DNA of 64,000 nucleotides from Alphaproteobacteria bacterium (lineage in GTDB: Bacteria > Pseudomonadota > Alphaproteobacteria > Bin95). The stretch covers positions 1,952,001 through 2,016,000 of the forward strand of contig OZ224045.1 of NCBI GenBank assembly GCA_963665325.3. Reading direction: 5' to 3'. Shown here one piece after another: positions 34,349 to 63,095 of the stretch. The notes below the pieces were generated by a model. It made no database searches, was not told the origin of the DNA, and worked only from the letters and a program-made list of their open reading frames with translations. A program made the translations under genes and the position numbers. The number at the start of each line of letters is the position of its first letter. The first letter of the stretch is position 1.

Positions 34349-34396
34349 TCCGGCATCCCCCTCGCTGCTTCGTGGAGGTGCCGATGATGCGGTGCC

Positions 34397-35712: not shown

Positions 35713-36597
35713 ATGAAGATGGGCAAGGGTGCCGACGCAGAGCGCGCGGTCGAGGCGAAATCCCGACGCGGGACGGTCTGGCGGCGTCTGAAGGAGGCGG
35801 GGGCTCGGGCGAACGGGCTTTCGGGGCTGTCCGGGGAGTTCGATCCGGGGCAGGCGGTATCGAAGCGGCTCGCCCGGGATGTTCTGGATGAGGCTGAAGC
35901 TGGGGCGGGCGTCGCGGCATTCCTTCCAGTCCATCCAGGCCTGAAAGAGGATGACCATGCCCGCGAGAACCGTCATGCCCACGACGCCGGCGGCAAGGAC
36001 CTCGGTCTTGTCCGGTCCGTAGAGGCAAAGCGCTCCGGTGCCCGCGACAGCGAAGACGAAGAGTCCCCCATAGGCGCTGCCGAAGGCGAAGGAGAGGATC
36101 GCTTCATCGAGGGCGAAGGTGCATTCGACGATTGGCACTGGATTTCGTTCGGTGGCGGTTCGCTCAGGGTGACGGCATTTTCGGCCTGCGTGCTGCTGCT
36201 GGCAAGCGCGCTGGCTCCCGGAGGGTTTTCGACTGACGGTGCGACGCTGGGGGCCGGGATGTATTTCGTGTGGCTTGCAGGCACGTTCTGGGGGAAGTGC
36301 CGGGGATGCGGCCGAGGCTTTGCGGTCGCTATGCAGCGGTTGGAGGCGGTCCGCTTCGGGCTGTCGGCGGTTGCGCTGGCGTTCCTGTGGGCGGGCGATC
36401 CGGCGGCTGCGGGTCTTGCGGTGTGGATTGCGGCGGCGGCGCTGGCGATCGGCGGGTTGGAAGACGGCGACTGGATCGCGGTGGTGTCGCTGCGCCGCGA
36501 GGTCCCGCCCTGGCGGGCGGTGGGCATTGTCTTCCGCGAGAGCCGGGATGCATGGCGCGAGGGCTGGCGCTCCCTTTACGGGGGGACGCTTCGATGA
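35713..36597 (+). CDS. hypothetical membrane protein upstream of pilQ (start uncertain; 36169 is an alternative)
   Basis: TM helices in the C-terminal half; ATGA overlap with pilQ. Confidence 0.5.
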   Translation: MKMGKGADAERAVEAKSRRGTVWRRLKEAGARANGLSGLSGEFDPGQAVSKRLARDVLDEAEAGAGVAAFLPVHPGLKEDDHARENRHAHDAGGKDLGLVRSVEAKRSGARDSEDEESPIGAAEGEGEDRFIEGEGAFDDWHWISFGGGSLRVTAFSACVLLLASALAPGGFSTDGATLGAGMYFVWLAGTFWGKCRGCGRGFAVAMQRLEAVRFGLSAVALAFLWAGDPAAAGLAVWIAAAALAIGGLEDGDWIAVVSLRREVPPWRAVGIVFRESRDAWREGWRSLYGGTLR

Positions 36598-38279
36598 CGG
36601 GCCGGCGGGACACATGGTGGGGCCGTCTCTTGTTCAAGGAGAAGCCGCCGGAAGTGATGCCGTCGGGCCTGGTGCGCTGGGAGCGGATGGACGAGCGCTT
36701 CCGGGAGCGCTGCGCGGTCTGGTCGGACGGGCGCGTGCTGATAGCGGACGGCTATGCGAACGACGTGGAGCTGCGCGCGCTGCTGGTGGAGTTGCAGCGC
36801 ACGGGCGCGGTCCGGGGCCAGTTCCGGGAGGAGACGGCCTCGCTCCAGGAGGTTGCGGAGGTCTGGCGCGGCAACCGGGTCCGTGACGAGAGCCTGGACG
36901 TGAACCCGCGGATCGTGGAGGGGCTTGTCGCGATCTTCACGGAGGCGGCGAGGGCCCGGGCTTCGGACGTGGTGCTGGAGAAGGGGCCGGACGACTGCCG
37001 GGTGTTCGCGATCGTGAACGACCGCAAGCTGCCGCTCGGTTCTGCGATGACGGTGCGGGAGGCGGAGCAGGTGTTCGGGTTCCTGTTCTTCGTGAAGGAC
37101 GAGGGCTCGCGGCAGACCTCCTTGCAGCGTGCGAGCTTCCAGGGTTTCAGCGTGAGGCGCTCGGAGACGTTCCCCTTGCCGGAGGAGATCGCGGCGCTGC
37201 GCTGCGAGGCGGGCCCGCACGAGCCGGAGGGCCACCACCTCTACATGCGTCTCTTCTACCGCGACCAGGTCGGGGGCCGGAAGACGCTGGAGGATCTCGG
37301 GTTCACGGCGGAGGTGGCGGGCCTGTTCCGCGAGATCCGGATGTCGAAATACGGCGGCATCTTCATCGGCGGGACGACGGGCGACGGCAAGTCGACGACG
37401 CTTGCGGTGAACCTGAACCTGCAGATGCGCGAGCACGGGCATCGCCTGAACATGGTGACGCTGGAGGACCCGGTCGAATACGACATACCGGGGGCGGTGC
37501 AGATTGCGGTGGGCACGCGGGGCATCGGCGAGGAGCGCGGTCTCGGCTTTGCAGCGGCGCTGATGCATTTCGTGCGGGTGCATCCGGCCTCGGGGATGGT
37601 TGGCGAGATCCGGGACAAGATGGGCGCGCAGCAGGTGCTGCAGTTCATCGACTCGGGCCACCAGGTGTGGACGACGATCCATGTCCACACGGCGAACGGC
37701 ATCCTGTTCCGCCTGATGGACCTCGGCGTCGAGGTGTCGGAGGTGACGAAGCCCGGCAACATCCGGCTTCTGGTGAAGCAGACGCTGGTGCCTCTGCTCT
37801 GTCCGGAATGTGCGAGGCCGGCGCTGCCGGAGGGACGGGACCTTCCGGAGGAGCTGGCGGTTCTGTTGGGCCCGGGGGTCCGCTACCGCAATCCGGAGGG
37901 TTGCCCGCAATGCCGGACGGCGGGCCAGTCGGCGCTCTCGCTGGCGGCCTGGGCGGGCTATGTGCGCCCGCTCGCGGTGGCGGAGTGGATCGTCCCGGAC
38001 GACGGCTATCTGAGGCATGTGCAGGCGCGCGACGCGGTGGGCGCGTGGAACCACTGGGTGGGTTCGATGGGCGGGGTTCCGATCGGGCGGAAGATCTGGC
38101 GCGCGGTCGGCGAGGGCCGGGTCGATCCGGCGGACGCGATGCTGAAGGGCGCGGAGATCGCCGAGGCGAAGGCGGTGTTCGGTCCTCCGGGCGAAGGCCT
38201 GCGGGAGGACGGGCCGGGTCATGCCGGCGCCGCGCCGGGCAAGCCGGTGCTCGTGGTGGATGCGGAGGCGGTGGAATGA
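36594..38279 (+). CDS. pilQ: type IVb pilus assembly ATPase (PilQ/BfpD/GspE family)
   Basis: ASDV, GTTGDGKST, LEDPVE, VGEIRD, TTIH, CPEC/CPQC Zn motif. Confidence 0.88.
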   Translation: MTGRRDTWWGRLLFKEKPPEVMPSGLVRWERMDERFRERCAVWSDGRVLIADGYANDVELRALLVELQRTGAVRGQFREETASLQEVAEVWRGNRVRDESLDVNPRIVEGLVAIFTEAARARASDVVLEKGPDDCRVFAIVNDRKLPLGSAMTVREAEQVFGFLFFVKDEGSRQTSLQRASFQGFSVRRSETFPLPEEIAALRCEAGPHEPEGHHLYMRLFYRDQVGGRKTLEDLGFTAEVAGLFREIRMSKYGGIFIGGTTGDGKSTTLAVNLNLQMREHGHRLNMVTLEDPVEYDIPGAVQIAVGTRGIGEERGLGFAAALMHFVRVHPASGMVGEIRDKMGAQQVLQFIDSGHQVWTTIHVHTANGILFRLMDLGVEVSEVTKPGNIRLLVKQTLVPLLCPECARPALPEGRDLPEELAVLLGPGVRYRNPEGCPQCRTAGQSALSLAAWAGYVRPLAVAEWIVPDDGYLRHVQARDAVGAWNHWVGSMGGVPIGRKIWRAVGEGRVDPADAMLKGAEIAEAKAVFGPPGEGLREDGPGHAGAAPGKPVLVVDAEAVE

Positions 38280-47988: not shown

Positions 47989-48324
47989 GCGTCGGGGCAG
48001 CGGCAGGGGCATTCCTGGTGGGGGCGGTTGCGCTCTCCGGCTGCCAGACGCTGAGTGTGCTCTCGGTATCTGATGGCGGGATGGTCACGTTGTTCGATGG
48101 TTTTCAGGCGTCGGGCCGGGCGTGACGGCGGGGGTGTCGGACGGCCGTCGGCGCGTCAAGCCGCTTCGCGGCTCCTGCGCTGCGCTCCGGCCCTTCGGGT
48201 GACCCGCCGCCGTCCCTCCGACGGAGTGCATCCATGGCCGTAAGCAAGCTTCCGGCCACGGGCCGGCCGCTTTACGCAGTGTGACAATGGGAGCGGTGTT
48301 ACCCGTTACCGTTACCCTCTCTCC

Positions 48325-49323
48325 CTAGGGGTTCGAGGCGGTAACGGTTTTCGGTAACGTGTCCCTGCGGTCGTTGCCGTTGAGGGCGGCGAGGCGGTAT
48401 CCGCCTTCGGATGCGCGCTCGACGCGTCCTTCGCGGACGAGCCTGTGCAGCGCCTCGGCGACGGTTGCGGGCCGGGTTGCCGCGCGCTCGCGGATCCGGC
48501 GCTGGGAGAGCGGCGCGTCGGCGTCGGCGAGGGCCTGCAGGATGCGCCGTTCGGGGGTATCCGGCTCCGGCGCCTGGTCTTCCGGCGTCTCGCGCAACCG
48601 CAGGGCGGGGCGCTCGTCGTCGTCGGCGAGTTCGATCTCGAGGTCTTCGAGGCCAGGGGCGTCGCGATGCTCGACGGTCATGAGGATCTGGCGGTCTCGC
48701 CGGCGCAGGTACAGATTCGAATCGCCCCAGGCGTGAAGTTCGCTGCTGCCGCGCAGCGCCTGCCCGGGCCGGGAGCCGCCGCTCTTTCGTGCGTGATGGA
48801 CGAGGAGGACGGCGGTTTCGAAGCGGCGCTGTATGTCGCGCAGGAAGCCCAGCATGGGGGCGACCTCGGCGACGGTATTTTCGTCGACGCCGTGCAGGCG
48901 CACGAGGGGGTCGAGGACGACGAGGCGGGGTGAGACGCGCTCCACCGTCTCGACCAGGCGCTGGCGATCGGCGCGATGGTCGAGACGCAGCGTGGGCACG
49001 TCGATGACGGCGATGTCGAGGGTCTCGAACGCGGTGCCTGCCGCCTTTGCGATGCCCTGGAGGCGTGCGCGCACGATATGGCCGGCGTCCTCGGCGGCGA
49101 ACAGCAGCACGGGGCCGCTTGCGGCGGGACGGAAGTGGCGCAGGCAGGGGACGCCGGCGGCGACCGCGACGGCGATGTCGAGTGCGAGGAAGGATTTGCC
49201 GCACTTGGGCTCGCCGCCGACGATGCCGACGCCCTGCTCGGACCACAACGCCTCGACCATCCAGCGGCGCGCCTGGGGGCGCTCTTCGAGCTCCGCCGGC
49301 GCCCGTGTCGGGAAGCCCTTCAC
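48325..49323 (-). CDS. RepA-like helicase (copy 2)
   Basis: translation identical to 31048-32046. Confidence 0.82.
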   Translation of the reverse strand: MKGFPTRAPAELEERPQARRWMVEALWSEQGVGIVGGEPKCGKSFLALDIAVAVAAGVPCLRHFRPAASGPVLLFAAEDAGHIVRARLQGIAKAAGTAFETLDIAVIDVPTLRLDHRADRQRLVETVERVSPRLVVLDPLVRLHGVDENTVAEVAPMLGFLRDIQRRFETAVLLVHHARKSGGSRPGQALRGSSELHAWGDSNLYLRRRDRQILMTVEHRDAPGLEDLEIELADDDERPALRLRETPEDQAPEPDTPERRILQALADADAPLSQRRIRERAATRPATVAEALHRLVREGRVERASEGGYRLAALNGNDRRDTLPKTVTASNP

Positions 49324-50153
49324 CGCCGCGCCCTCCTCGGCTTGGCGGGTTCGCCCAGGGTCTCGATGAAGAGCTTCTCGTCGAGGACCTCGCGCTCCTT
49401 CTCGGCGGCGGCGGCGAGCAGGGCGTCGGCCATGACGGTGAGCGCCCGCGGGTTGCCGTCGGCATGGGCGACCAGGGTGTCCTTGAGGCCCGCGGTCATG
49501 AGGCCGGGATTGCCGGCCTGCTCGATCAGATGGTCGAGCAGGGCCGCGAGGTCGCCGGCCTCGGCCTTGGTCATGACCAGGCGCTGGCGGATGCGCGAGG
49601 CGATGGGCTGCAGATCGGGCTGGCGGAGCTTGTCGAGCAGGCGCGTGTCGCCGGCGAGGACGACCGAGAGGATGGCGCGCGAGTCGAAGTCGGTCGAAGC
49701 CAGCAGGCGGATCTCGGAGAACACCGAGGGCAGCAGCTCCTGGGCCTCGTCGACGAGCACGACGGGGCGCATGCGGGTATCGTCGACATGGGCGAGCCAG
49801 CGCTCGCGCAGGCTTTTGAAGCTGGCCCAGCGGTTGTTGTACATCAGGTCGACGCCGAACATCTCGCCGATCTCGCGGTAGAAGTCGGACAGCCGGGAGG
49901 AGGGATGGGTGATGGCGGCGATGCTGAGCCCCTCGCAGCGGCCGAGACGGTCGGCGAGCAGGCGCAACGCCACACTCTTTCCGGCGCCGGGCTCGCCGGC
50001 GATCAAGGCGAAGCCGCCCTGGCGCACCAGGTGGCGCTCGATCCTGAGGCAGAAGCTGTCGACGGCAGGCGTCGCCATGAGACTGTCGACCGGCAGGTCG
50101 GTGGCGAAGGGGTTCCACTTGAGCCCGTAGAAGGTGAGCAGTTCCCGGTTCAT
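49320..50153 (-). CDS. ExeA/MuB-like ATPase (copy 2)
   Basis: identical to 32043-32876. Confidence 0.88.
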   Translation of the reverse strand: MNRELLTFYGLKWNPFATDLPVDSLMATPAVDSFCLRIERHLVRQGGFALIAGEPGAGKSVALRLLADRLGRCEGLSIAAITHPSSRLSDFYREIGEMFGVDLMYNNRWASFKSLRERWLAHVDDTRMRPVVLVDEAQELLPSVFSEIRLLASTDFDSRAILSVVLAGDTRLLDKLRQPDLQPIASRIRQRLVMTKAEAGDLAALLDHLIEQAGNPGLMTAGLKDTLVAHADGNPRALTVMADALLAAAAEKEREVLDEKLFIETLGEPAKPRRARR

Positions 50154-51625
50154 GGCGCATCTCCCCGATCTTCGTCCTCGCCCGGACCGGGCGTCTTGTC
50201 ATGGGGCAGCCAGGCCGGCGGCAGGCCGGTTGCGGCCTGGGCGTCGAGCATGCCCTTGAGCAGCGGCGGAAGTTCCCCCGTCCCCGCGCCGCCATTGCCA
50301 TCGTTGCCGCCGGGGCCGGCGGGACGGCGCACGCCATCGGCGTTGCCGCGCTTGTCGAGGGGGTACAGCGTGCACAGGCGCTCGCCGCCTCGACCGTCGA
50401 TCAGATCGACGCTGGCGAGGTTCCAGCGCGCGTAACGGATCCAGGCCTCGCGCAGGTGGCGCCACGGCTGTGGCACCTGGTAGCGGATGCCCTCGACCGA
50501 GACGGTGCCGTCCGAGCGCCTGAGCGTGCGCTTCCTGGTGATGCGGAAGGCCGCCTTGAGCTCGGCCGAGCCGGGGCAGGATCTCGACGCGTCGACGCTC
50601 CCGGCCAGGCGTTGATGCGGCGTCATGCCGAGCTCGCGGTGCTTGCGGCGGTGATAGTCCTGCTCCAGCCAGGCGATGGTGGCGTCGTTGAGCATCTTCA
50701 AGGTAAGCGCGTCGACGCCTTCGAGCTGAGCCATCAGGCGCGATTCGACCGTGCCCCAGAACGACTCGATCTTGCCGTTCTGATGGGGGCTGTAAGCGAG
50801 CGTCGTGACCCCCGCGATGCCGAGCCGGTGCAACCCCTCCTCGACCTCGCCCGCGGTCATCGCCGCGCCGTTGTCGGTCAGCAGGGACCTCGGCAGACCG
50901 CGCTTCATGAAGGCCTGGCAAAGGCCGTGGACGAACACCTCGGCGGTCTCGGCGAGGTACCACTGAAGGTGGCAGCCGAGGCGCGAGTGGTCGTCGAGGA
51001 AGCCGAGCAGGATCGGCGTCTTCCACTCGCCCGAGGCGGTCAGCACGCGACGCTTGGCGCTGTGCATGTCGGCGTGCCACAGGGCGTGAGAGCGCGAGAC
51101 CTCGTAGCTCAATACCTCGCGGGCTTCGACCGCCGGCCTGGCCTCGCTCTCATGCCACTTGCGCCGGCGCTTGCGTACCAGCCCGCGAGCCCGCATCGCC
51201 CGGGTCAGCGTCGCGTAGGACGGTATCGGGCCGAGCTCGGGATCGGCCTCGACCCGCGCGGCCAGATTCTCGTGATGAAGCTGCGCCGACCACGACGGAT
51301 GCGCCCGGTACTGCTCGTGCAGCGCCTCGATCAGCGTCGGCGACATCGCGCGCGGGCGCCCGGCATCGGCGCGCGGGCGCCGCTTGAGCGCCCCCACCGG
51401 ATCGTTGTCCGCCGCCCGCGCCTGGTAGTACCAGCGCTCGATCGTGGACACCGCGAAGCGCACCCGGCCCTTGCCGGACGGGTGATCCCACTCGCGTTCG
51501 GCAAGCCGCTCAAGCTCGGCGTGCAGCCGCCCCGCCGGCGGCGGCGAGGCCAGAAGCGGCCCGACCACCGCGAAGCGCAACCGCGCCCACCGGTCGCGAC
51601 GCTCGCTCCCGTCGTTGCTGTTCAT
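50150..51625 (-). CDS. DDE transposase (copy 2)
   Basis: identical to 32873-34348. Confidence 0.93.
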   Translation of the reverse strand: MNSNDGSERRDRWARLRFAVVGPLLASPPPAGRLHAELERLAEREWDHPSGKGRVRFAVSTIERWYYQARAADNDPVGALKRRPRADAGRPRAMSPTLIEALHEQYRAHPSWSAQLHHENLAARVEADPELGPIPSYATLTRAMRARGLVRKRRRKWHESEARPAVEAREVLSYEVSRSHALWHADMHSAKRRVLTASGEWKTPILLGFLDDHSRLGCHLQWYLAETAEVFVHGLCQAFMKRGLPRSLLTDNGAAMTAGEVEEGLHRLGIAGVTTLAYSPHQNGKIESFWGTVESRLMAQLEGVDALTLKMLNDATIAWLEQDYHRRKHRELGMTPHQRLAGSVDASRSCPGSAELKAAFRITRKRTLRRSDGTVSVEGIRYQVPQPWRHLREAWIRYARWNLASVDLIDGRGGERLCTLYPLDKRGNADGVRRPAGPGGNDGNGGAGTGELPPLLKGMLDAQAATGLPPAWLPHDKTPGPGEDEDRGDAP

Positions 51626-51673
51626 TCCGGCATCCCCCTCGCTGCTTCGTGGAGGTGCCGATGATGCGGTGCC

Positions 51674-52288
51674 CTATCCGTGCATCATAGAAACGCTTTC
51701 TGCGGGCGAAGCCGGACCTGCGCCGAGCGCGCAAAAGCCGGTCCACGGCATCAGCCAGACCAGGCTCCGCAGCAGCCGCGAGCGGAAGCCACGGCCCCGC
51801 ATGATGCGCAGCAGCCGGCGCAGCGGCGCCTCTTCGGGCGGCGCCGCCAGCTCGCCCCGTCTCGCCTGCCACTCCCGGGTCAGCGGGAAGGCTTCCAGCC
51901 ACCAGCGCCGCCAGCGCTTCAGCGTCGAGGCCGGAACCCCGCACCGCCGCGCGATCGTCTGCAACCGCGCGCCGCCGGCCACAGCCAGCGCACTCACCAC
52001 AAGGAACAGCGCCCCGACGTAAAAGCGCCTGCCGAAGAAACGCACCGACGGCGGCTTCACGCGGCGTCGGCACACCGAACAGCACAGGCTGAAGCGCCGA
52101 ACGTCGTTCCGAAGATTCGCCGCCAGACCGTGCGGCTTGCGCGGGTAGCTCGCGCTGTGAAGCGCGCCGCCGCAGCGCGGGCAACCCGCCGCCCGGCACG
52201 CCTCCGCCTCGGCCGCGTCGACCTGCTTCAGAAAATCCCAAACCCGGGCGTTGGAGAGATTGGAGTGCCGGAACAGCTTGTGCGACAT
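51674..52288 (-). CDS. Zn-ribbon/HTH ORF1 (copy 2)
   Basis: identical to 34397-35011. Confidence 0.75.
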   Translation of the reverse strand: MSHKLFRHSNLSNARVWDFLKQVDAAEAEACRAAGCPRCGGALHSASYPRKPHGLAANLRNDVRRFSLCCSVCRRRVKPPSVRFFGRRFYVGALFLVVSALAVAGGARLQTIARRCGVPASTLKRWRRWWLEAFPLTREWQARRGELAAPPEEAPLRRLLRIMRGRGFRSRLLRSLVWLMPWTGFCALGAGPASPAESVSMMHG

Positions 52289-52897
52289 TGGGGCCGTCTC
52301 AGGTTGATGTCACTGTCACCGAGACAAGCCCTCCGGCGGCCTTCTTGCAAGATCGCCGGGGGGCACCCAATCCAAAACCTCGATTAATCCGAGCCGATCA
52401 GCCCCTGATCGCCGCTGAAAGCCTGCGCCCGCTCAGACGCTGGATTTCGGCCGGGACCCGGTTCCGAAGGAAGGCAACGGCTCGGTCATGGACCCGGCCG
52501 AAGCGCGCCTGGCGGAAGCGGTGCTTAGTGCCGAACGGTCGCTGTCGCTGATCGCGGAGACGCGCTCGGCCGAGGCGGACCTGAGGGTTCCGGACGTGCC
52601 GGAGAATGTGCCGCCCGAACTGCTTCTGAAGGTGACCCTGGACTACATCGGGCCGCTGGAGGAGCTGGCGCGGCAGCTGGCGGCGGGCGCAGGCTACGGG
52701 CTGGTGACGGCGGGCCGTCCGCCGCCGGCGCCGGTGCTGGTCGAGATCGAGGCGGATGACACGCCGCTCATCCACATCTTCAGGGATGCCGGCATGCAGG
52801 CGGCCGACCGCGCGCTTCTGACGGTGGACGCCGGCCGCATGACCGTGCGCCTTGACTGGTTCGAGGCCGAACCGCGCGCGCAGGGAACCGGCGGTTG

Positions 52898-53761
52898 ATG
52901 CGGCTCGCGCGCTTCCTCCTCCCGGCCCTGGCCGTGCTTCTGGTCCCGTTGTGGGCAGCGGCGGAGGACTCTGCACCCCCCGATCTTGCGGCACTGCTGG
53001 AGGCAAGGCCCGGTGCGGAGCTGGGAGTGGAGTTCGGAGAGGAGAAACGCCGCGAGGCGATGCGCGCTGCCGCTCTGGCCTATGGGGCGCAGGGAGGTCT
53101 GGCGCGGCGGTCCTGGGAGATCGCGCGGGACGTGGTGGCGAAGCACGAGGCGAGCCTCGACAGGCTGTACGGGTTCAGGCGGTTGATGGAGAGCCGGCAC
53201 GGGTTCGTTCTGGTGCCGCCGGTTGTGGGCGAGACGCGCCAGGCGGTGCGCCTCGGGCGGGACGGGCGGCGCGCGGCCTCGGCGGCGCGCGTGGTTCGGA
53301 TCATGGAATCCGAGCGCCTGGCGACGGCGCCGCCGCACTGGCGGGACTTCCTGGTCCGTCGCTGGCGGGTTCCGGAGCCTCCGGTATCGGTGCTGTTCCC
53401 GCGTGACGACGTGGAGAAGGTGGACTGGGCGCGCTGGATCGCTCGCGGCTGGCAGGAGGGCGTGAAGCAGGCGGACGCGATCTTCGCGGCGGACCTGGAT
53501 CGTCTGAATGCGCTTCTGGAAGGGATCGCGCGCTGGAACACGCTCCACGGCGCCCGGATGGTGGGCGCTCCGAAGGTTGAGGTCAGCCGTTCGGCGACGG
53601 CCGGCGACGGCCGCGTGATGCGGGTCGGCGAGACGCTTGTGAGGCTCGGGCGGCCGGCGGAGCTTCAGCTTCGCTCGCGCGAGTGGCGCGGGTTCGTGTT
53701 CCGGAACGAGGGCGGTCAGGCGGGGGCCGGGCTTCCGGTGTGGTCGGAGGCGGGGCCGTGA
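52898..53761 (+). CDS. dotC: DotC/TraI family T4BSS protein
   Basis: RREAMRAAALAYGAQGGLA, LDRLYGF, LVPPVV, PPHWRDFL, GWQEG..QADAIF..DLDRL. Confidence 0.85.
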   Translation: MRLARFLLPALAVLLVPLWAAAEDSAPPDLAALLEARPGAELGVEFGEEKRREAMRAAALAYGAQGGLARRSWEIARDVVAKHEASLDRLYGFRRLMESRHGFVLVPPVVGETRQAVRLGRDGRRAASAARVVRIMESERLATAPPHWRDFLVRRWRVPEPPVSVLFPRDDVEKVDWARWIARGWQEGVKQADAIFAADLDRLNALLEGIARWNTLHGARMVGAPKVEVSRSATAGDGRVMRVGETLVRLGRPAELQLRSREWRGFVFRNEGGQAGAGLPVWSEAGP

Positions 53762-54474
53762 GCGGCGTCAGGCACGGCGAAAGAGGTTACGGGAAGGTGG
53801 TGCCGTTCGGGAGACAGTCCGAAGCGGCCGGGGGCCGGCCAGGTGGGGCGCCAATAGCAGGTAAGGATGAGCAGGAAGGCGGCGACCGCCGTCATGAGCA
53901 GGGTGAACCGGGAGGGGCGGAGTACCAGCTTGCCCAGGGTGGGCGGACGGAACCGGAGGTACAGCAGGACGAGGAAAGCGGGCAGCGCGATGAAGTAGCC
54001 GGAGGCGCACAGGGCGGCCCAGGCTTTGGAAACGAGTATCGGGATATGGTCCAGGATGCGGGGAATTCCTTTGCCTTGACGTTGGCGCTGGCGATGCCGC
54101 TGGCGGTATGTGCTTTGGGGCCCGGCACGGCAGGTTGGAGGCATATAGCGGTCGCAGCCGGATACTACGGGCTTCTTTTCGTCTTCAGCAGTTGGGCGGC
54201 GCGGCGCTGGGGCGGAAAGGACGGGGTTCTCGCGCGGTCGGTATTCATGGAAAGCCGCATTGCGATCGTGCTGATCGGATTTGCGGCCGTGGGTTTCGGT
54301 TCGCCTGTGCTTCTGGAAATCGCGCCGGACGTGCTGGCGGTGGCGATCGCGGGTTCCGGGTTGGCCGATGGACGGGCGGTGGGATTGGAGGCGCGGATCC
54401 GCGGTCGTTCCGTGGCGCGGGCGCTCCTCTGCGTGGCGTCGGATCGCGGTGCCGGAAGGAAGGCGTCGTCATGA
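53758..54474 (+). CDS. hypothetical membrane protein upstream of dotB (start uncertain; 54046 is an alternative)
   Basis: TM-rich C-terminal half; ATGA overlap with dotB. Confidence 0.5.
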   Translation: MSGVRHGERGYGKVVPFGRQSEAAGGRPGGAPIAGKDEQEGGDRRHEQGEPGGAEYQLAQGGRTEPEVQQDEESGQRDEVAGGAQGGPGFGNEYRDMVQDAGNSFALTLALAMPLAVCALGPGTAGWRHIAVAAGYYGLLFVFSSWAARRWGGKDGVLARSVFMESRIAIVLIGFAAVGFGSPVLLEIAPDVLAVAIAGSGLADGRAVGLEARIRGRSVARALLCVASDRGAGRKASS

Positions 54475-55598
54475 CCGGCCTCTGGGCGCCCGGCGAGCAT
54501 GTGTTTCCGGTCGAGCGACTGGACGATTTCCTCCGGTGGGCGTGGGAGGAGCGGGCGTCGGACGTTTCGTTCCAGACGCAGGCGCCGGCATTGATCGAGG
54601 TGGACGGCCGGGTGCGCCGGGCGACGTTGGCGTCGCTGGACAACACGACCGTCGAGCGGATCGCGCGCGAGATCGGGCGGGAGACCGCGGACGGTGTGCT
54701 GCGGTCGGGCCGCGCGGTGGACTGCGGGCATGCGGTGGGTCTGGAGCGCGGTCTGGATATCCGGTTCCGCTGCAATCTCTCGCCGGTCCAGGTGAAGCAC
54801 GGTTTCGGGATCAACATCACGATGCGGCTCTTGCCGGGCGACCCTCCGACGCTGGACGAGCTGCATATCGAGGGTGAGATCGTTGAGGCCCTGGAGGCCT
54901 GCACGGGACTGAACCTTGTGACGGGCGTTCCGGGGAGCGGCAAGAGCACGCTACTGGCGGCGGGAACCAGGCGGCTTCTGGAGATGGGGGCGGGGCGCAT
55001 CCAGAGCTACGAGGCGCCGATCGAGTTCGTCTTCGACGGTGTGGAGACGGGCGGCGCGAGCCTGATGTCGAGCTCGGAGATTCCGCGTCATTTCGTGGAT
55101 TTTGCGGACGGGTTGCGGGCGAGCCTTCGCCGGCGCCCGGCGGCGGTGATCGTAGGCGAGGCGCGGGACAGGGAGACGGTGGAGGCGGCGATCAATGCGG
55201 CGGATTTCGGGATCGCGGTCTACAGCACGACGCACACGATCGGGGTGGCGAACACGGTCCGCCGGATGCTGAGCGAGTTTCCGGAGGACGAGCGCGACGA
55301 GCGCGGCGCCGCCCTGATCGACATGCTGAACCTGGTGGTGACGCAGGTGCTGTTGCCGAACCCCGAAGGCGGGCGGACGGCGGTGAGGGAATGGCTCGTG
55401 TTTGACGCCGACCTGAAGGCGGAGCTGCTGGACATGCGCCGCCAGTTTTGGCCGCGGCGGATATCCGAAGCGTTGCGGGCGACGGGTCACGGTCTGGCGG
55501 TGCAGGCGGAGGCGGTGTTTGCCGAGGGGCGGATCGGGGCGCGGGACCTCGCGCGCATTCGCGCCTCGCACGGCATGGCGGGGAGCGAGGCATCGTGA
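54471..55598 (+). CDS. dotB: DotB/TraJ PilT-family ATPase
   Basis: ASDVSFQT, RFRCN, GVPGSGKST, YEAPIEF, LRRRP..VGEARD, STTHT, REWLVFD. Confidence 0.88.
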   Translation: MTGLWAPGEHVFPVERLDDFLRWAWEERASDVSFQTQAPALIEVDGRVRRATLASLDNTTVERIAREIGRETADGVLRSGRAVDCGHAVGLERGLDIRFRCNLSPVQVKHGFGINITMRLLPGDPPTLDELHIEGEIVEALEACTGLNLVTGVPGSGKSTLLAAGTRRLLEMGAGRIQSYEAPIEFVFDGVETGGASLMSSSEIPRHFVDFADGLRASLRRRPAAVIVGEARDRETVEAAINAADFGIAVYSTTHTIGVANTVRRMLSEFPEDERDERGAALIDMLNLVVTQVLLPNPEGGRTAVREWLVFDADLKAELLDMRRQFWPRRISEALRATGHGLAVQAEAVFAEGRIGARDLARIRASHGMAGSEAS

Positions 55599-57167: not shown

Positions 57168-57872
57168 AGGCAGGGGAGCGTCTCGGTCTCGAGGATCACG
57201 AGATGCGCAGCGTGGCGGCGTCTCTCTGGTGGAGTTTCACCTTGTTGTGCGCAGGAATGGTGGCGGTATGGCCGGTCACCGGAGGGCCCTGGGTTCTGCC
57301 TGCATATGGGCTGGGGGCTGCCCTGGCGTTTGTTGCGATGAGGATGCACGGGGCGGCTCTCGGGCGGGGGGAGAGTGGGAGCCGCTTTCGTCGCATGACG
57401 GGAGAGCTGCTCGTTCGGTGGGACCCGAGACCTGTCGCGATCCTGGTAACGGTCATGTGCGCTGTGTGGCTTGTCGCGGGGTTCCTGCTTGTTCCGTCCG
57501 AAGTGTTGTCTGGCGTGGAAAACCCCGGAGCGACAAAGGCGGAGATCGATGAAGCGTTTGAGGCACGCCTGAACGGGTTCGTAGAGCGGGCAGCGCCGTT
57601 GCGGGTGGCGGTGGCGGTTTTCGGATTGGTTGGAGCGGTCTGCGCCGGTCTGTCGGACTGGCTTTGGCTCGGCACGGTCGCAGGGAGGCTTGGGGTGAAG
57701 CCCTGGCAGGTCTTGCCGGTCGGGCTGAGCGGGCGCAGGCTTTCAGCGGCGATCAGGGGCTGATCGGCTCGGATTAATCGAGGTTTTGGATTGGGTGCCC
57801 CCCGGCGATCTTGCAAGAAGGCCGCCGGAGGGCTTGTCTCGGTGACAGTGACATCAACCTGAGACGGCCCCA

Positions 57873-58487
57873 ATGTCGCACAAGCTGTTCCGGCACTCCA
57901 ATCTCTCCAACGCCCGGGTTTGGGATTTTCTGAAGCAGGTCGACGCGGCCGAGGCGGAGGCGTGCCGGGCGGCGGGTTGCCCGCGCTGCGGCGGCGCGCT
58001 TCACAGCGCGAGCTACCCGCGCAAGCCGCACGGTCTGGCGGCGAATCTTCGGAACGACGTTCGGCGCTTCAGCCTGTGCTGTTCGGTGTGCCGACGCCGC
58101 GTGAAGCCGCCGTCGGTGCGTTTCTTCGGCAGGCGCTTTTACGTCGGGGCGCTGTTCCTTGTGGTGAGTGCGCTGGCTGTGGCCGGCGGCGCGCGGTTGC
58201 AGACGATCGCGCGGCGGTGCGGGGTTCCGGCCTCGACGCTGAAGCGCTGGCGGCGCTGGTGGCTGGAAGCCTTCCCGCTGACCCGGGAGTGGCAGGCGAG
58301 ACGGGGCGAGCTGGCGGCGCCGCCCGAAGAGGCGCCGCTGCGCCGGCTGCTGCGCATCATGCGGGGCCGTGGCTTCCGCTCGCGGCTGCTGCGGAGCCTG
58401 GTCTGGCTGATGCCGTGGACCGGCTTTTGCGCGCTCGGCGCAGGTCCGGCTTCGCCCGCAGAAAGCGTTTCTATGATGCACGGATAG
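57873..58487 (+). CDS. Zn-ribbon/HTH ORF1 (copy 3)
   Basis: identical translation. Confidence 0.75.
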   Translation: MSHKLFRHSNLSNARVWDFLKQVDAAEAEACRAAGCPRCGGALHSASYPRKPHGLAANLRNDVRRFSLCCSVCRRRVKPPSVRFFGRRFYVGALFLVVSALAVAGGARLQTIARRCGVPASTLKRWRRWWLEAFPLTREWQARRGELAAPPEEAPLRRLLRIMRGRGFRSRLLRSLVWLMPWTGFCALGAGPASPAESVSMMHG

Positions 58488-58535
58488 GGCACCGCATCAT
58501 CGGCACCTCCACGAAGCAGCGAGGGGGATGCCGGA

Positions 58536-60011
58536 ATGAACAGCAACGACGGGAGCGAGCGTCGCGACCGGTGGGCGCGGTTGCGCTTCGCGGTGGTCGG
58601 GCCGCTTCTGGCCTCGCCGCCGCCGGCGGGGCGGCTGCACGCCGAGCTTGAGCGGCTTGCCGAACGCGAGTGGGATCACCCGTCCGGCAAGGGCCGGGTG
58701 CGCTTCGCGGTGTCCACGATCGAGCGCTGGTACTACCAGGCGCGGGCGGCGGACAACGATCCGGTGGGGGCGCTCAAGCGGCGCCCGCGCGCCGATGCCG
58801 GGCGCCCGCGCGCGATGTCGCCGACGCTGATCGAGGCGCTGCACGAGCAGTACCGGGCGCATCCGTCGTGGTCGGCGCAGCTTCATCACGAGAATCTGGC
58901 CGCGCGGGTCGAGGCCGATCCCGAGCTCGGCCCGATACCGTCCTACGCGACGCTGACCCGGGCGATGCGGGCTCGCGGGCTGGTACGCAAGCGCCGGCGC
59001 AAGTGGCATGAGAGCGAGGCCAGGCCGGCGGTCGAAGCCCGCGAGGTATTGAGCTACGAGGTCTCGCGCTCTCACGCCCTGTGGCACGCCGACATGCACA
59101 GCGCCAAGCGTCGCGTGCTGACCGCCTCGGGCGAGTGGAAGACGCCGATCCTGCTCGGCTTCCTCGACGACCACTCGCGCCTCGGCTGCCACCTTCAGTG
59201 GTACCTCGCCGAGACCGCCGAGGTGTTCGTCCACGGCCTTTGCCAGGCCTTCATGAAGCGCGGTCTGCCGAGGTCCCTGCTGACCGACAACGGCGCGGCG
59301 ATGACCGCGGGCGAGGTCGAGGAGGGGTTGCACCGGCTCGGCATCGCGGGGGTCACGACGCTCGCTTACAGCCCCCATCAGAACGGCAAGATCGAGTCGT
59401 TCTGGGGCACGGTCGAATCGCGCCTGATGGCTCAGCTCGAAGGCGTCGACGCGCTTACCTTGAAGATGCTCAACGACGCCACCATCGCCTGGCTGGAGCA
59501 GGACTATCACCGCCGCAAGCACCGCGAGCTCGGCATGACGCCGCATCAACGCCTGGCCGGGAGCGTCGACGCGTCGAGATCCTGCCCCGGCTCGGCCGAG
59601 CTCAAGGCGGCCTTCCGCATCACCAGGAAGCGCACGCTCAGGCGCTCGGACGGCACCGTCTCGGTCGAGGGCATCCGCTACCAGGTGCCACAGCCGTGGC
59701 GCCACCTGCGCGAGGCCTGGATCCGTTACGCGCGCTGGAACCTCGCCAGCGTCGATCTGATCGACGGTCGAGGCGGCGAGCGCCTGTGCACGCTGTACCC
59801 CCTCGACAAGCGCGGCAACGCCGATGGCGTGCGCCGTCCCGCCGGCCCCGGCGGCAACGATGGCAATGGCGGCGCGGGGACGGGGGAACTTCCGCCGCTG
59901 CTCAAGGGCATGCTCGACGCCCAGGCCGCAACCGGCCTGCCGCCGGCCTGGCTGCCCCATGACAAGACGCCCGGTCCGGGCGAGGACGAAGATCGGGGAG
60001 ATGCGCCATGA
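58536..60011 (+). CDS. DDE transposase (copy 3)
   Basis: identical translation. Confidence 0.93.
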   Translation: MNSNDGSERRDRWARLRFAVVGPLLASPPPAGRLHAELERLAEREWDHPSGKGRVRFAVSTIERWYYQARAADNDPVGALKRRPRADAGRPRAMSPTLIEALHEQYRAHPSWSAQLHHENLAARVEADPELGPIPSYATLTRAMRARGLVRKRRRKWHESEARPAVEAREVLSYEVSRSHALWHADMHSAKRRVLTASGEWKTPILLGFLDDHSRLGCHLQWYLAETAEVFVHGLCQAFMKRGLPRSLLTDNGAAMTAGEVEEGLHRLGIAGVTTLAYSPHQNGKIESFWGTVESRLMAQLEGVDALTLKMLNDATIAWLEQDYHRRKHRELGMTPHQRLAGSVDASRSCPGSAELKAAFRITRKRTLRRSDGTVSVEGIRYQVPQPWRHLREAWIRYARWNLASVDLIDGRGGERLCTLYPLDKRGNADGVRRPAGPGGNDGNGGAGTGELPPLLKGMLDAQAATGLPPAWLPHDKTPGPGEDEDRGDAP

Positions 60012-60841
60012 ACCGGGAACTGCTCACCTTCTACGGGCTCAAGTGGAACCCCTTCGCCACCGACCTGCCGGTCGACAGTCTCATGGCGACGCCTGCCGTC
60101 GACAGCTTCTGCCTCAGGATCGAGCGCCACCTGGTGCGCCAGGGCGGCTTCGCCTTGATCGCCGGCGAGCCCGGCGCCGGAAAGAGTGTGGCGTTGCGCC
60201 TGCTCGCCGACCGTCTCGGCCGCTGCGAGGGGCTCAGCATCGCCGCCATCACCCATCCCTCCTCCCGGCTGTCCGACTTCTACCGCGAGATCGGCGAGAT
60301 GTTCGGCGTCGACCTGATGTACAACAACCGCTGGGCCAGCTTCAAAAGCCTGCGCGAGCGCTGGCTCGCCCATGTCGACGATACCCGCATGCGCCCCGTC
60401 GTGCTCGTCGACGAGGCCCAGGAGCTGCTGCCCTCGGTGTTCTCCGAGATCCGCCTGCTGGCTTCGACCGACTTCGACTCGCGCGCCATCCTCTCGGTCG
60501 TCCTCGCCGGCGACACGCGCCTGCTCGACAAGCTCCGCCAGCCCGATCTGCAGCCCATCGCCTCGCGCATCCGCCAGCGCCTGGTCATGACCAAGGCCGA
60601 GGCCGGCGACCTCGCGGCCCTGCTCGACCATCTGATCGAGCAGGCCGGCAATCCCGGCCTCATGACCGCGGGCCTCAAGGACACCCTGGTCGCCCATGCC
60701 GACGGCAACCCGCGGGCGCTCACCGTCATGGCCGACGCCCTGCTCGCCGCCGCCGCCGAGAAGGAGCGCGAGGTCCTCGACGAGAAGCTCTTCATCGAGA
60801 CCCTGGGCGAACCCGCCAAGCCGAGGAGGGCGCGGCGGTGA
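60008..60841 (+). CDS. ExeA/MuB-like ATPase (copy 3)
   Basis: identical translation; ATGA coupling. Confidence 0.88.
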   Translation: MNRELLTFYGLKWNPFATDLPVDSLMATPAVDSFCLRIERHLVRQGGFALIAGEPGAGKSVALRLLADRLGRCEGLSIAAITHPSSRLSDFYREIGEMFGVDLMYNNRWASFKSLRERWLAHVDDTRMRPVVLVDEAQELLPSVFSEIRLLASTDFDSRAILSVVLAGDTRLLDKLRQPDLQPIASRIRQRLVMTKAEAGDLAALLDHLIEQAGNPGLMTAGLKDTLVAHADGNPRALTVMADALLAAAAEKEREVLDEKLFIETLGEPAKPRRARR

Positions 60842-61836
60842 AGGGCTTCCCGACACGGGCGCCGGCGGAGCTCGAAGAGCGCCCCCAGGCGCGCCGCTGG
60901 ATGGTCGAGGCGTTGTGGTCCGAGCAGGGCGTCGGCATCGTCGGCGGCGAGCCCAAGTGCGGCAAATCCTTCCTCGCACTCGACATCGCCGTCGCGGTCG
61001 CCGCCGGCGTCCCCTGCCTGCGCCACTTCCGTCCCGCCGCAAGCGGCCCCGTGCTGCTGTTCGCCGCCGAGGACGCCGGCCATATCGTGCGCGCACGCCT
61101 CCAGGGCATCGCAAAGGCGGCAGGCACCGCGTTCGAGACCCTCGACATCGCCGTCATCGACGTGCCCACGCTGCGTCTCGACCATCGCGCCGATCGCCAG
61201 CGCCTGGTCGAGACGGTGGAGCGCGTCTCACCCCGCCTCGTCGTCCTCGACCCCCTCGTGCGCCTGCACGGCGTCGACGAAAATACCGTCGCCGAGGTCG
61301 CCCCCATGCTGGGCTTCCTGCGCGACATACAGCGCCGCTTCGAAACCGCCGTCCTCCTCGTCCATCACGCACGAAAGAGCGGCGGCTCCCGGCCCGGGCA
61401 GGCGCTGCGCGGCAGCAGCGAACTTCACGCCTGGGGCGATTCGAATCTGTACCTGCGCCGGCGAGACCGCCAGATCCTCATGACCGTCGAGCATCGCGAC
61501 GCCCCTGGCCTCGAAGACCTCGAGATCGAACTCGCCGACGACGACGAGCGCCCCGCCCTGCGGTTGCGCGAGACGCCGGAAGACCAGGCGCCGGAGCCGG
61601 ATACCCCCGAACGGCGCATCCTGCAGGCCCTCGCCGACGCCGACGCGCCGCTCTCCCAGCGCCGGATCCGCGAGCGCGCGGCAACCCGGCCCGCAACCGT
61701 CGCCGAGGCGCTGCACAGGCTCGTCCGCGAAGGACGCGTCGAGCGCGCATCCGAAGGCGGATACCGCCTCGCCGCCCTCAACGGCAACGACCGCAGGGAC
61801 ACGTTACCGAAAACCGTTACCGCCTCGAACCCCTAG
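60838..61836 (+). CDS. RepA-like helicase (copy 3)
   Basis: identical translation; GTGA coupling. Confidence 0.82.
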   Translation: MKGFPTRAPAELEERPQARRWMVEALWSEQGVGIVGGEPKCGKSFLALDIAVAVAAGVPCLRHFRPAASGPVLLFAAEDAGHIVRARLQGIAKAAGTAFETLDIAVIDVPTLRLDHRADRQRLVETVERVSPRLVVLDPLVRLHGVDENTVAEVAPMLGFLRDIQRRFETAVLLVHHARKSGGSRPGQALRGSSELHAWGDSNLYLRRRDRQILMTVEHRDAPGLEDLEIELADDDERPALRLRETPEDQAPEPDTPERRILQALADADAPLSQRRIRERAATRPATVAEALHRLVREGRVERASEGGYRLAALNGNDRRDTLPKTVTASNP

Positions 61837-61863
61837 GGAGAGAGGGTAACGGTAACGGGTAAC
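61801..61863. repeat. iteron-like hexamers: 2x GTTACC then 3x GGTAAC around a CCCTAGGG palindrome (also at 31021-31083 and 48298-48360)
   Basis: acGTTACCgaaaaccGTTACCg..CCCTAGGG..gGGTAACGGTAACgGGTAAC. Confidence 0.8.
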
Positions 61864-62210
61864 ACCGCTCCCATTGTCACACTGCGTAAAGCGGCCGGCC
61901 CGTGGCCGGAAGCTTGCTTACGGCCATGGATGCACTCCGTCGGAGGGACGGCGGCGGGTCACCCGAAGGGCCGGAGCGCAGCGCAGGAGCCGCGAAGCGG
62001 CTTGACGCGCCGACGGCCGTCCGACACCCCCGCCGTCACGCCCGGCCCGACGCCTGAAAACCATCGAACAACGTGACCATCCCGCCATCAGATACCGAGA
62101 GCACACTCAGGGCCGGCAGATCCCGACTGGTGCGGTCTTGCGGAGAGGGAGCGGGCCCGGCGCCGGAGTTATCTGAGGGACGGGGGCGTCGTCCAGGATG
62201 GGGAAGGTCG

Positions 62211-63095
62211 ATGAAACGGTTCGGGAAACAGATGGCGGCCTGGCTCGTGACGCTTGCAGCGGGCGCCGCGACGATCGGATGGACAATGGACATCAAGACG
62301 GCATCGGGCCGGGAGGCGGGCGGAGCCCTTGTGGCCGGTCTTCGCACGAACGGAGCGGAGGTGAAGCCGCTCGGTCGCAGGGGAGCGCTCGAAGGGTGGC
62401 TGGTCACGCCTCGCGGCAAGCCGCCTTACACGCTTTATGTGGACGAGAGCGGCCATGGGGTGATGGGGCTGCTGTTCGGGCCCGACGGCCGGGAGCTGAC
62501 GGGCAGGCAGGTGGCGTCCATCAGGGAAGATGTGGAGCGCCTGCCCGGCAATGTCCGGGAGCCGCCCGGGGCTTCCGCATCGGAGGTTGAGCCGCTGACG
62601 GAGGTTTCGCGGGTTGCGCCGGGGCCGGCTCGCGGAGGGTTGGCGCCGGCGCCGGCGGCGGGAGTTCTGGAGGCGGCCCTGGCGGCGGAAGGGTTCGACC
62701 TCGGCGAGGCCGGGCCGCAGGTCGCGATCTTCGCCGACCCGACCTGCCTTCCTTCCCGTGCGGCGGTTGCGGAGCTTGCGCGCCGTGCGCTCGACGGCGG
62801 GATCGTGTTGCGCGTGGTGCCTGTAGGGGCGCGCGGCGCGGAGGCCGAGGTCATGGCCGCGCTGGTGCTGGGTGCGGAGGACCGGGCGCGGACCTGGTTC
62901 ACGCTCGACCGCGAGGACGAATGGCCGGCGTTGAGTTCGGATGCCGCGGCCGGGGTGGCGCTGAACCGGCGGTTGTTCGGGCGCACGGGGTCGGAGTTCG
63001 TTCCGTATGCGTTGATGCGGGAGCCGTCCGGAGAGGTCGTTTCCGCCGTCGGTCTGGAGTTCCGGCAATGGTTCGGCGAGGGGACGGCGAGGTGA
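62211..63095 (+). CDS. DsbG/TrbB-like thioredoxin-fold periplasmic protein with CxxS
   Basis: signal/TM, DsbG-like N-terminal domain (LYVDESGH..GLLFGPDG), FADPTCLPS, FVP cis-Pro loop. Confidence 0.72.
   Translation: MKRFGKQMAAWLVTLAAGAATIGWTMDIKTASGREAGGALVAGLRTNGAEVKPLGRRGALEGWLVTPRGKPPYTLYVDESGHGVMGLLFGPDGRELTGRQVASIREDVERLPGNVREPPGASASEVEPLTEVSRVAPGPARGGLAPAPAAGVLEAALAAEGFDLGEAGPQVAIFADPTCLPSRAAVAELARRALDGGIVLRVVPVGARGAEAEVMAALVLGAEDRARTWFTLDREDEWPALSSDAAAGVALNRRLFGRTGSEFVPYALMREPSGEVVSAVGLEFRQWFGEGTAR

Follow-up and report, generated by a model that had tools for sequence, protein, structure and literature searches.

A Tn6049-like DDE transposon with its own RepA/DnaB-type ATPase and palindromic repeat array, a candidate element-borne replication-initiation module

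Introduction

Why would a DDE transposon carry a gene for an apparent replicative helicase? This question is raised by a 4,384-bp element that occurs three times in a 64,000-nucleotide stretch of an alphaproteobacterial genome (GenBank assembly GCA_963665325.3, contig OZ224045.1, positions 1,952,001 to 2,016,000; this whole stretch is referred to below as the window). An earlier inspection of the DNA letters (here termed the sequence-only reading) noted that the fourth gene of the element encodes a P-loop protein (designated P4 in this study) resembling RepA of plasmid RSF1010, and proposed it to be a core component of the transposon rather than cargo. The analysis described below suggests that P4, together with a palindromic repeat array at the end of its gene, makes up an element-borne replication-initiation module, by which the element would build its own fork during transposition. 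We consider this reading probable, albeit with modest confidence.

When strand transfer by a DDE transposon yields a branched product, the element is believed to rely on replication-restart proteins of the host, among them PriA, DnaC and DnaB. To our knowledge, the handover from transpososome to replisome has been well worked out only for phage Mu.

Results

Organization of the element

The copy of the element that lies on the forward strand comprises the following features (window coordinates).

57726–62109, forward strand: transposon copy 3, complete, 4,384 bp, with TGAG...CTCA ends and a 4-bp target duplication (GGGC)
57873–58487, forward strand: open reading frame 1 (ORF1), 204 aa, with a Zn-ribbon-like N-terminal part containing four Cys, and HTH_23
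58536–60011, forward strand: DDE transposase, 491 aa, HTH_32 and rve
60008–60841, forward strand: ATPase, 277 aa, AAA_22, MuB/TniB/ExeA-like, overlapping the transposase stop codon (ATGA)
60838–61836, forward strand: P4, 332 aa, with a GTG start overlapping the ATPase stop codon (GTGA)
61803–61863, no strand assigned: palindromic hexamer array astride the P4 stop codon, with two GTTACC units, a spacer containing the TAG stop, and three GGTAAC units
61896–62034, forward strand: structured motif of ~139 nt, a hairpin followed by a long stem that closes a multi-hairpin junction, present in all 24 copies in the genome
62061–62109, no strand assigned: right-end region, made up of the terminal CTCA and of subterminal words of the CCATC type that occur repeatedly; its left-end counterpart is at 57726–57765

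Both the order of the four genes given by the sequence-only reading (Zn-ribbon/HTH ORF1, DDE transposase, ATPase, 332-aa P-loop protein) and the two gene overlaps that it pointed out are borne out by the open reading frames and by the domain matches.

The fourth protein, P4

Domain searches and structural modeling predict P4 to be a RecA-fold ATPase of the RepA/DnaB type (superfamily 4, SF4), with its catalytic residues conserved and a winged helix attached. The AAA_25 domain (residues ~1–245; E 4.6e-36) is followed by a winged helix-turn-helix (residues ~255–311), with several winged-helix models matching residues 258–309. Among solved structures, the closest match in sequence is RSF1010 RepA itself (1g8y, E 2.4e-8). 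The RepA motifs that the sequence-only reading had cited proved to be real, as they align in order to this structure (GKS, AED, VLDxLxRxHxxEEN/DEN, HHAxK and RGSS), and the C-terminal winged helix that it had proposed is upheld by the model matches and by the predicted structure. The motifs characteristic of SF4 helicases, namely H1 (Walker A), H1a (catalytic Glu), H2 (Walker B), H3 and H4, are all present in order. Their residues vary little or not at all among 69 aligned relatives, which agree completely at nine positions (K43, E78, R87, D138, P139, R142, E148, R191 and R220).

Of the checks suggested earlier, hidden Markov model searches covered all four ORFs, and structure prediction covered P4 and ORF1. 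The prediction gave an AlphaFold2 model of P4 with a predicted local distance difference test score (pLDDT) of 91.6, whereas the model of ORF1 was poor (see below). The top Foldseek matches of P4 were DnaB (4esv, E 3e-12), RadA, RepA (template-modelling score of 0.75 normalised to RepA) and Twinkle. Matches in PHROG were to primase-helicases and DnaB-like helicases, and one relative, at 42% identity, carries a DnaB N-terminal domain in front of the region shared with P4. P4 belongs to a large family, for which a threshold of E ≤ 1e-3 gives 38,189 cluster representatives and one of E ≤ 1e-30 gives 489. In a model of self-association built from four copies of residues 1–245 (a copy number that differs from the calibration set-up), P4 scored 0.47 as compared to 0.00 for the best control, with a run agreement of at least 45% and a partner pLDDT of at least 75, a mark reached by 20 of 30 solved homo-pairs and by 1 of 23 single chains. 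The N-terminal arm in this model rests on residues 73–130 of the next copy. As the modeled multimer resembles solved SF4 rings, the score may reflect that likeness and is not a proof of a ring.

The palindromic repeat array

Most of the 50 P4-bearing loci examined have behind P4 an array of GGAA-type repeats, composed of two to three direct units of 6–7 nt, a spacer of 16–25 nt and two to three inverted units, located astride the P4 stop codon or just after it (in the window element, ~250 bp from the right end). No array of that kind was detected in any of 22 loci lacking P4, including Tn6049, the closest named element (described below). The unit itself differs between elements (GGTAAC in the window; GGAAAC, GGGAAC and GGAAGC in other elements of the window's type A; GGAACC in type B, both types being defined below), and both arms change together. 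Since the arms are internally periodic and the inspected mismatches are not of the wobble type, a protein-binding site is favored over an RNA hairpin. A hairpin or terminator, considered as a candidate, was judged less likely on the same two grounds and for lack of a T-run after the array.

The two residues that follow a conserved Arg at the start of the predicted recognition helix of P4 track the array unit: Pro-Ala is found with GGTAAC, His-Lys with GGAACC, Asn-Ala or Asn-Ser with GGGAAC, and Ala-Thr with GGAAAC. In this comparison the P4 proteins are otherwise 70–85% identical and each pairing represents one clade, so that the apparent covariation of helix and array is suggestive only. Overall, we propose that P4 binds this array through its winged helix.

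The slot behind the array: a structured motif or a primase gene

What follows the array is variable, and the variants may bear directly on the function of P4. In the window element this slot is occupied by the structured motif. A consensus structure on 18 sequences is 96.1% paired (27–46% in slid controls), 10 base pairs have changed on both sides as compared to 4.9 ± 1.4 in shuffles (0 of 500 shuffles reach 10), and the preponderance of G-U over A-C cells (41 vs 4) assigns the structure to the sense strand. Folding of single sequences was not distinctive in this G+C-rich DNA (z of −1.64 and −0.81), and it is the covariation alone that argues for the structure. No Rfam family matched the region 57500–62400 at E ≤ 1. 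A covariance model finds the motif in 24 of 24 copies in this genome, in type A and type B relatives and, on its own, in other genomes. RNA-library contigs of 90–95%-identical relatives span the ATPase–P4 junction and run from P4 into the motif, although DNA carry-over may account for them. Gaps in the coverage of the window by RNA runs are given no weight here, and the small shares of words in RNA runs X17–X20 are not taken to indicate a habitat.

As a side observation, a variant of the motif is found in a congener genome (G011) inside a gene-less 293-bp repeat with TGTAGG..CAACAG-type ends (L184:7224-7516 and L185:6043-6335), and the 13 identical motif matches in that genome point to an element resembling a miniature inverted-repeat transposable element.

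In window-clade elements without the motif, its place is taken by a gene for a DUF3991+Toprim_2 protein of 289 aa, in seven lineages by hand grouping. The motif is present in ~19 distinct loci, one locus has neither motif nor Toprim gene, and none has both, with one Toprim element showing a weak partial motif match (31 bits). The DUF3991+Toprim_2 protein has no solved relative by sequence. A second arrangement, in which a DnaG-type primase gene (zf-CHC2+Toprim_2) directly follows P4, is found in more distant relatives.

L070:8103-8972: fifth gene, DUF3991+Toprim_2; also in L092, L073, L084, L041, L053, L043, L049/L003 and L052/L006
L123:4218-5162: zf-CHC2+Toprim_2 DnaG-type primase directly behind P4
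L187:2475-3398 (type C, see below): zf-CHC2+Toprim_2 DnaG-type primase directly behind P4; also in L188

The best solved relative of the L123 primase is DnaG (2au3, E 3.6e-12), and a partial match to a DnaG-type primase is present in L130. The L123 and type C primases are 50% identical to each other, with only ~30% identity between the transposases of the same elements. The recruitment of two primase architectures beside P4 in separate lineages is, in our view, the strongest sign of a role for P4 in replication. The structured motif may act either as an RNA, which the sense-strand wobble pairs would suit, or as a priming site in single-stranded DNA. Several GNA-loop mini-hairpins of the motif recall single-strand origins.

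A rather different function of P4 would be that of a regulatory or targeting ATPase that binds DNA but does not unwind it, controlling transposition from the array near the right end, for instance through repression, through immunity or by sensing the state of the DNA. The winged helix and its cognate array, the best-supported pairing in this system, would suit such a protein; not every RecA-fold ATPase is a replicative helicase, as KaiC and RadA illustrate; and P4 is dispensable in the Tn6049 clade. We nevertheless regard this possibility as quite improbable, given that all helicase motifs (the catalytic Glu and Arg residues included) are invariant, that one relative is fused to the DnaB N-terminal domain, and that a mere regulator would leave the two primase architectures recruited behind P4 unexplained. 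In addition, the window copies lie as close as 5.3–13 kb apart, which argues against any strong target immunity at that range.

Is P4 a core component or cargo?

For the replication-initiation reading it matters whether P4 is a regular part of the transposon. When genome contigs were scanned with P4, 80 loci were returned, spread over about twenty assemblies (45 of the 80 from one metagenome-assembled genome), with hosts among Alphaproteobacteria, Chloroflexota, Dehalococcoidia, Acidimicrobiales and Acidobacteria. In all 80 loci P4 lies downstream of an AAA_22 homolog on the same strand, three of these loci being interrupted by other insertions. Type A, the type of the window element, accounts for 47 of the 80 (transposases 69–87% identical to the window's). 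The remaining 33 are of type B, with the same four-gene layout, a length of 4.38–4.39 kb, TGTTG..CAACA ends and 5-bp duplications. Compared with the window proteins, the type B transposase reaches only 28% identity and the type B ATPase 26%, and yet type B P4 is 73–79% identical. Type C, from another class of the phylum, retains the same gene order at ~30% identity for transposase and ATPase and 42% for P4. Among 400 genomes sampled across the phylum, 13 have P4 relatives, only three of which (39–43% identity) are in transposon synteny. Among 400 sampled within the class, three have a close transposase relative, all on tiny contigs that are uninformative for context. A congener genome contains at least seven copies of an 82%-identical four-gene element.

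A second view of P4 carriage came from a metagenome scan with the transposase alignment, which returned 80 loci at ~50–56% identity. A locus was scored as P4-minus when P4 was missing despite at least 400 bp of sequence behind the ATPase, and 16 of the 80 were too short to score. P4 (41–64% identical) directly follows the ATPase in 44 of the 64 scorable loci and is missing from the other 20, so that these relatives mostly carry the helicase-like gene, contrary to what would be expected of incidental cargo in the terms of the sequence-only reading. In a transposase tree of 98 rows (3 of 101 were dropped as short or interrupted matches; genome G263 contributed one unscored row, L101, which supports no claim made here), all 22 P4-less elements including Tn6049 form one clade (95 by the Shimodaira–Hasegawa-like approximate likelihood ratio test), and one change suffices to explain their distribution. 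The absence of P4 would then be a single loss if type B is taken as the outgroup, the root not being independently known.

A tree of 46 of the 60 P4-bearing rows (14 were dropped as short) shows the same major clades as the transposase tree. Hence the congruence proposed earlier as a check holds for the major clades, and it fails at one point: type B P4 is nested in the window clade with 100% support. The P4 module therefore moved between types A and B, in agreement with a DNA identity of 76–77% that covers P4 and ~200 bp behind it but not the ends. The ratios of nonsynonymous to synonymous substitution are similar for P4 (0.11–0.47), transposase (0.15–0.41) and ATPase (0.10–0.45), so that purifying selection on P4 is like that on the transposase. 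A search of a plasmid collection (72,556 records) yielded one weak P4 match, which indicates that P4 is not ordinary plasmid gear.

Taken together, these comparisons describe P4 as an ancient, selected and widely retained component of the superfamily, which is modular and dispensable for the chemistry of transposition. The original claim that the helicase is core rather than cargo is thus supported by its identical place in three lineages, its carriage by 44 of 64 relatives, the single change on the tree and the signature of selection, and is weakened by the mobility of the P4-less Tn6049.

A further alternative would be a passenger: P4 and its site as a selfish or host-directed cassette (plasmid or phage replication, interference, defence) with no role in movement. 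Its exchange as a unit between lineages A and B, its one loss with mobility kept, and the ability of the structured motif to travel alone in the 293-bp repeat are all compatible with this. A passenger would hardly be expected, however, in the same place and orientation in three lineages, joined to the ATPase gene by a start/stop overlap or a short spacer, at a position where no other cargo was ever seen (primases excepted), and with major clades shared with the transposase. PADLOC gave no significant match for any of the four element proteins, and the single weak plasmid match likewise argues against such a cassette, which we consider very unlikely.

Type A elements (loci L002–L092) were also found to be mosaic, the identity to the window element varying gene by gene. 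For example, the values for ORF1, transposase, ATPase and P4 are 66, 78, 91 and 80% in L041 and 87, 76, 71 and 79% in L013. This mosaicism points to frequent recombination between co-resident elements.

Tn6049, the closest named element

A plasmid DNA search with the element matched 24 records, 20 of them from Cupriavidus and all in the transposase–ATPase part only. In pMOL28 the match contains, in this order, a 189-aa homolog of ORF1, a 479-aa protein labeled "IS481 family transposase", a 277-aa protein labeled "AAA family ATPase" and a small ORF; this match is Tn6049 of Cupriavidus metallidurans CH34. Tn6049 is a 3.5-kb element with 12 copies in CH34 and a "gspA" ATPase (PMC2864759). Its inverted repeats, of the TG..CA type, are imperfect and 12 bp long, and it is flanked by a direct repeat of 4 bp (PMC4739549). 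The window element shares with Tn6049 the order of the first three genes (40% identity for ORF1, 51% for transposase, 51% for ATPase), TG..CA ends, imperfect repeats, a short duplication and the multi-copy state. At 3.5 kb rather than 4,384 bp, Tn6049 lacks P4, the repeat array and the structured motif. Behind its ATPase there is only an ORF of 71–90 aa without likeness to P4, and Tn6049 belongs to the single P4-less clade of the transposase tree. This small ORF was considered as a possible P4 remnant and rejected (hhalign probability 0.6%).

The ORF1–transposase–ATPase core is thus already known and has a named, if little-studied, member. The sequence-only reading, which knew of no described element with the four-gene architecture, stands as regards the helicase, which is absent from Tn6049. 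Our literature searches (ISfinder and TnCentral were not covered) found no paper on a Tn6049-like or Mu-like transposon with a helicase, and they turned up no account of the helicase and its repeat array, of the primase variants or of the structured motif. Other helicases are reported in telomeric Tn7-like elements (10.1101/2024.11.13.623437).

Both Tn6049 in pMOL28 (L011 2068-2727, 6088-8517) and a P4-bearing metagenomic relative (L182:6749-8329) are located inside or beside Tn3-family transposase genes. This neighborhood may be due to a target preference or to chance.

A proposed mechanism and its standing

In the reading that we favor, the transposase and ATPase would nick the TG..CA ends and join them to a target cut with a 4–6 bp stagger. 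Domain and family searches of the four ORFs of the element revealed no resolvase, TnsA or TniQ; with neither a TnsA-like nuclease nor a resolvase, the product of strand transfer would have to undergo replication or repair. P4 would be placed on the element by its winged helix at the array, ~250 bp from the right end, where it would assemble as a ring and unwind the element. A polymerase would then copy the element, using a primer made by host primase or, in some relatives, by the element's own primase. Element copying could thereby become independent of host helicase-loading and restart proteins, and such independence would fit the near-identical modules found across several phyla and the very high copy numbers. 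In a broader and more tentative version, which we find plausible though somewhat doubtful, the whole would be a phylum-crossing transposon superfamily with its own minimal origin, the helicase being self-loaded at the array, priming being provided by an own primase or by a motif recruiting host primase, and Tn6049 being a reduced descendant.

The same components might alternatively replicate an excised circular copy, the helicase and array acting as a small origin primed by the motif or a primase, with the circle amplified or kept before reintegration. A helicase, a DNA-binding domain, palindromic repeats and a primase or structured site do constitute the layout of an initiator with its origin. 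IS481-family relatives use circular intermediates, and IS481 is the best family model of the transposase. The module also works beside very different transposases, as would be expected of an independent replicon function. On the other hand, the depth of element unitigs in run X1 (~580–670) is 21–24 fold that of the flanks (27.5–28.5), the product of copy number and flank depth expected from 24 chromosomal copies, so that no extra replicated element DNA is visible. No joint of the right end to the left end was present among assembled contigs, and none of 102 small contigs has terminal overlaps. The only backward joint, which leads from 61008 to 57940 at a depth of 2.4, lies away from the element ends. 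All these depth and junction data come from Logan contigs, which drop rare forms and make for a weak test of circles. Moreover, the four ORFs of the element include no partition or copy-control genes. Overall, we deem the circular replicon unlikely.

Fork building by P4 during transposition, the reading preferred here, has in turn to be weighed against several observations. The depth and junction data just described show no surplus element DNA and no end-to-end junction. The RecA-fold neighbors of the modeled P4 include RadA and Rad51, and a helicase function is therefore not the sole possibility. In the domain search P4 lacks the DnaB N-terminal domain that binds host primase. No primase was found in the window element or its genome by the queries used, and most of the metagenomic P4-bearing elements are devoid of their own primase. 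The passage of the module between lineages with transposases only 28% and ATPases only 26% identical speaks against specific contacts with the transposition proteins, and it would also fit a semi-independent module. Finally, the P4-less Tn6049 clade, with the 12 copies in CH34 and the 20 Cupriavidus plasmid records, spreads well enough to indicate that the chemistry of transposition does not need P4.

Copies, ends and target duplications

The element is a real transposon that was active very recently. In addition to the copy described above, the window contains two others.

30775–35158, reverse strand: transposon copy 1, complete, inverted relative to copy 3, with a 5-bp target duplication (CCAGG)
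48052–52435, reverse strand: transposon copy 2, complete, inverted relative to copy 3, with a 5-bp target duplication (GACGC)

Base-for-base comparison confirmed the three occurrences with TG..CA ends and duplications noted previously. The copies are identical at 4,384 of 4,384 bases, and their identity ends at the coordinates given here, with a chance extension of 0–2 bases. The earlier coordinates and ends are thus retained, and the orientation is corrected, copies 1 and 2 being the reverse complement of copy 3. The inverted repeat formed by the TGAG...CTCA termini is imperfect.

A blastn search of the source genome (5 contigs, 5.58 Mb) identified 23 full-length copies, 21 of them at 100% and two at 99.977% identity, and a 24th that is split by an insertion sequence (IS) of 2,070 bp. 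Perfect target duplications flank 19 of the 23 full copies (5 bp in nine, 4 bp in eight, 6 bp in two). The other four comprise two with swapped flanks and two with one mismatch or offset. We regard the element as an active, autonomous DDE transposon of the Tn6049 lineage.

Several further observations concern the genomic setting. In the two copies with swapped flanks (C4:930514-934897 and C2:25283-29666, outside the window) the left flank of each is the right flank of the other, which fits either recombination between copies or an unresolved replicative event joining two contigs. The 2,070-bp IS (C1:2290873-2292942, outside the window) is unlike the transposon and has 12 full identical copies, the source genome being rich in expanding insertion sequences. 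Seven transposon copies, the three window copies among them, are clustered inside 120 kb of contig C1 (1982775-2101890), a few of them only 5–13 kb apart, reflecting either local hopping or a tolerant region. Around its copies, the window encodes proteins for conjugation and type IV secretion, with genes for two VirB11-like T2SSE ATPases and for a T4SS_TraI protein at 36270–38279, 52895–53761 and 54108–55598. The copies appear to be located in an integrated conjugative element, a ready route for spread.

ORF1, transposase and ATPase

ORF1 has an HTH_23 match and four Cys that are invariant among homologs. Its AlphaFold2 model reached a pLDDT of only 66 and gave no PDB match at E ≤ 0.001. Assignment as a TniQ-like protein was considered and is unsupported, there being no TniQ match. 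ORF1 is a conserved accessory protein.

The catalytic residues D186, D251 and E287 of the transposase are invariant. Its best NCBIfam model is IS481 (NF033577), at 123.9 bits under a cutoff of 224. Membership in the IS481 family was accordingly rejected, the element having, moreover, four genes rather than the one of a single-gene IS. The transposase also matches a PHROG family of transposable-phage transposases (E 2.4e-40). The domain search found no Mu-transpos_C match in the window transposase; the type B transposase has one (E 1.7e-7). The ATPase matches AAA_22 (E 5e-20) and, in PHROG, the family "DNA transposition protein" (E 1.4e-23); its match to MuB (8xvb, E 0.056) is weak.

Discussion: significance and comparison with known systems

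If the proposed mechanism is true, this would be the first DDE transposon known to have its own fork-building proteins, with no need of a host helicase loader or restart primosome. Such an ability could explain why the family, with tens of copies per genome, is so successful in Alphaproteobacteria, Chloroflexota, Acidimicrobiales and Acidobacteria. An element family with its own helicase, loading site and sometimes primase would provide a direct handle on the transpososome-to-replisome handover, the more so as it offers a natural series of variants, in which P4 is accompanied by the structured motif or by a primase, stands alone or, as in Tn6049, is missing. The helicase-plus-site module, at ~1.1 kb, may serve as a portable loading system. 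The structured motif, mobile alone in the 293-bp repeat and without an Rfam family, is worth study in itself.

In its transposition machinery the element resembles phage Mu (MuA/MuB), Tn552 and Tn5053/Tn402 (TniA/TniB), all of which combine a DDE transposase with an AAA+ ATPase for target DNA, TG..CA ends and duplications of ~5 bp. The type B transposase is like the Mu group also in carrying a Mu-transpos_C domain. Unlike members of the Mu/Tn552/Tn5053/Tn7 group, the element is without resolvase, TniQ, TnsA and phage genes. Mu, Tn552 and Tn5053 elements rely on host helicase loading, and we know of no element of this type that encodes a helicase.

P4 has the design of RSF1010 RepA, a single RecA-like domain without the DnaB N-terminal domain, with motifs in order and folds in agreement. 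It differs in its low identity (~19% in the fold alignment), in the added C-terminal winged helix, and in being part of a transposon rather than a plasmid. An IncQ-type replicon comprises RepC, RepB' and an oriV with iterons and ssi (single-strand initiation) sites, whereas the element has neither a RepC initiator nor a RepB' primase, and its array repeats are of another kind.

The combination of a ring helicase with a sequence-reading domain that binds palindromic short repeats is also found in phage P4 alpha, SV40 large T and papillomavirus E1, and phage P4 alpha joins a primase as well. These proteins are, however, superfamily 3 helicases of viruses or plasmids, whereas the P4 protein described here is SF4-like and encoded by a DDE transposon, so that the likeness is one of design only. 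Casposons and Polintons bring their own replication proteins, namely a protein-primed PolB together with Cas1 or a retroviral-type integrase. In contrast, the present element carries a helicase, and in its relatives also a primase, but no polymerase.

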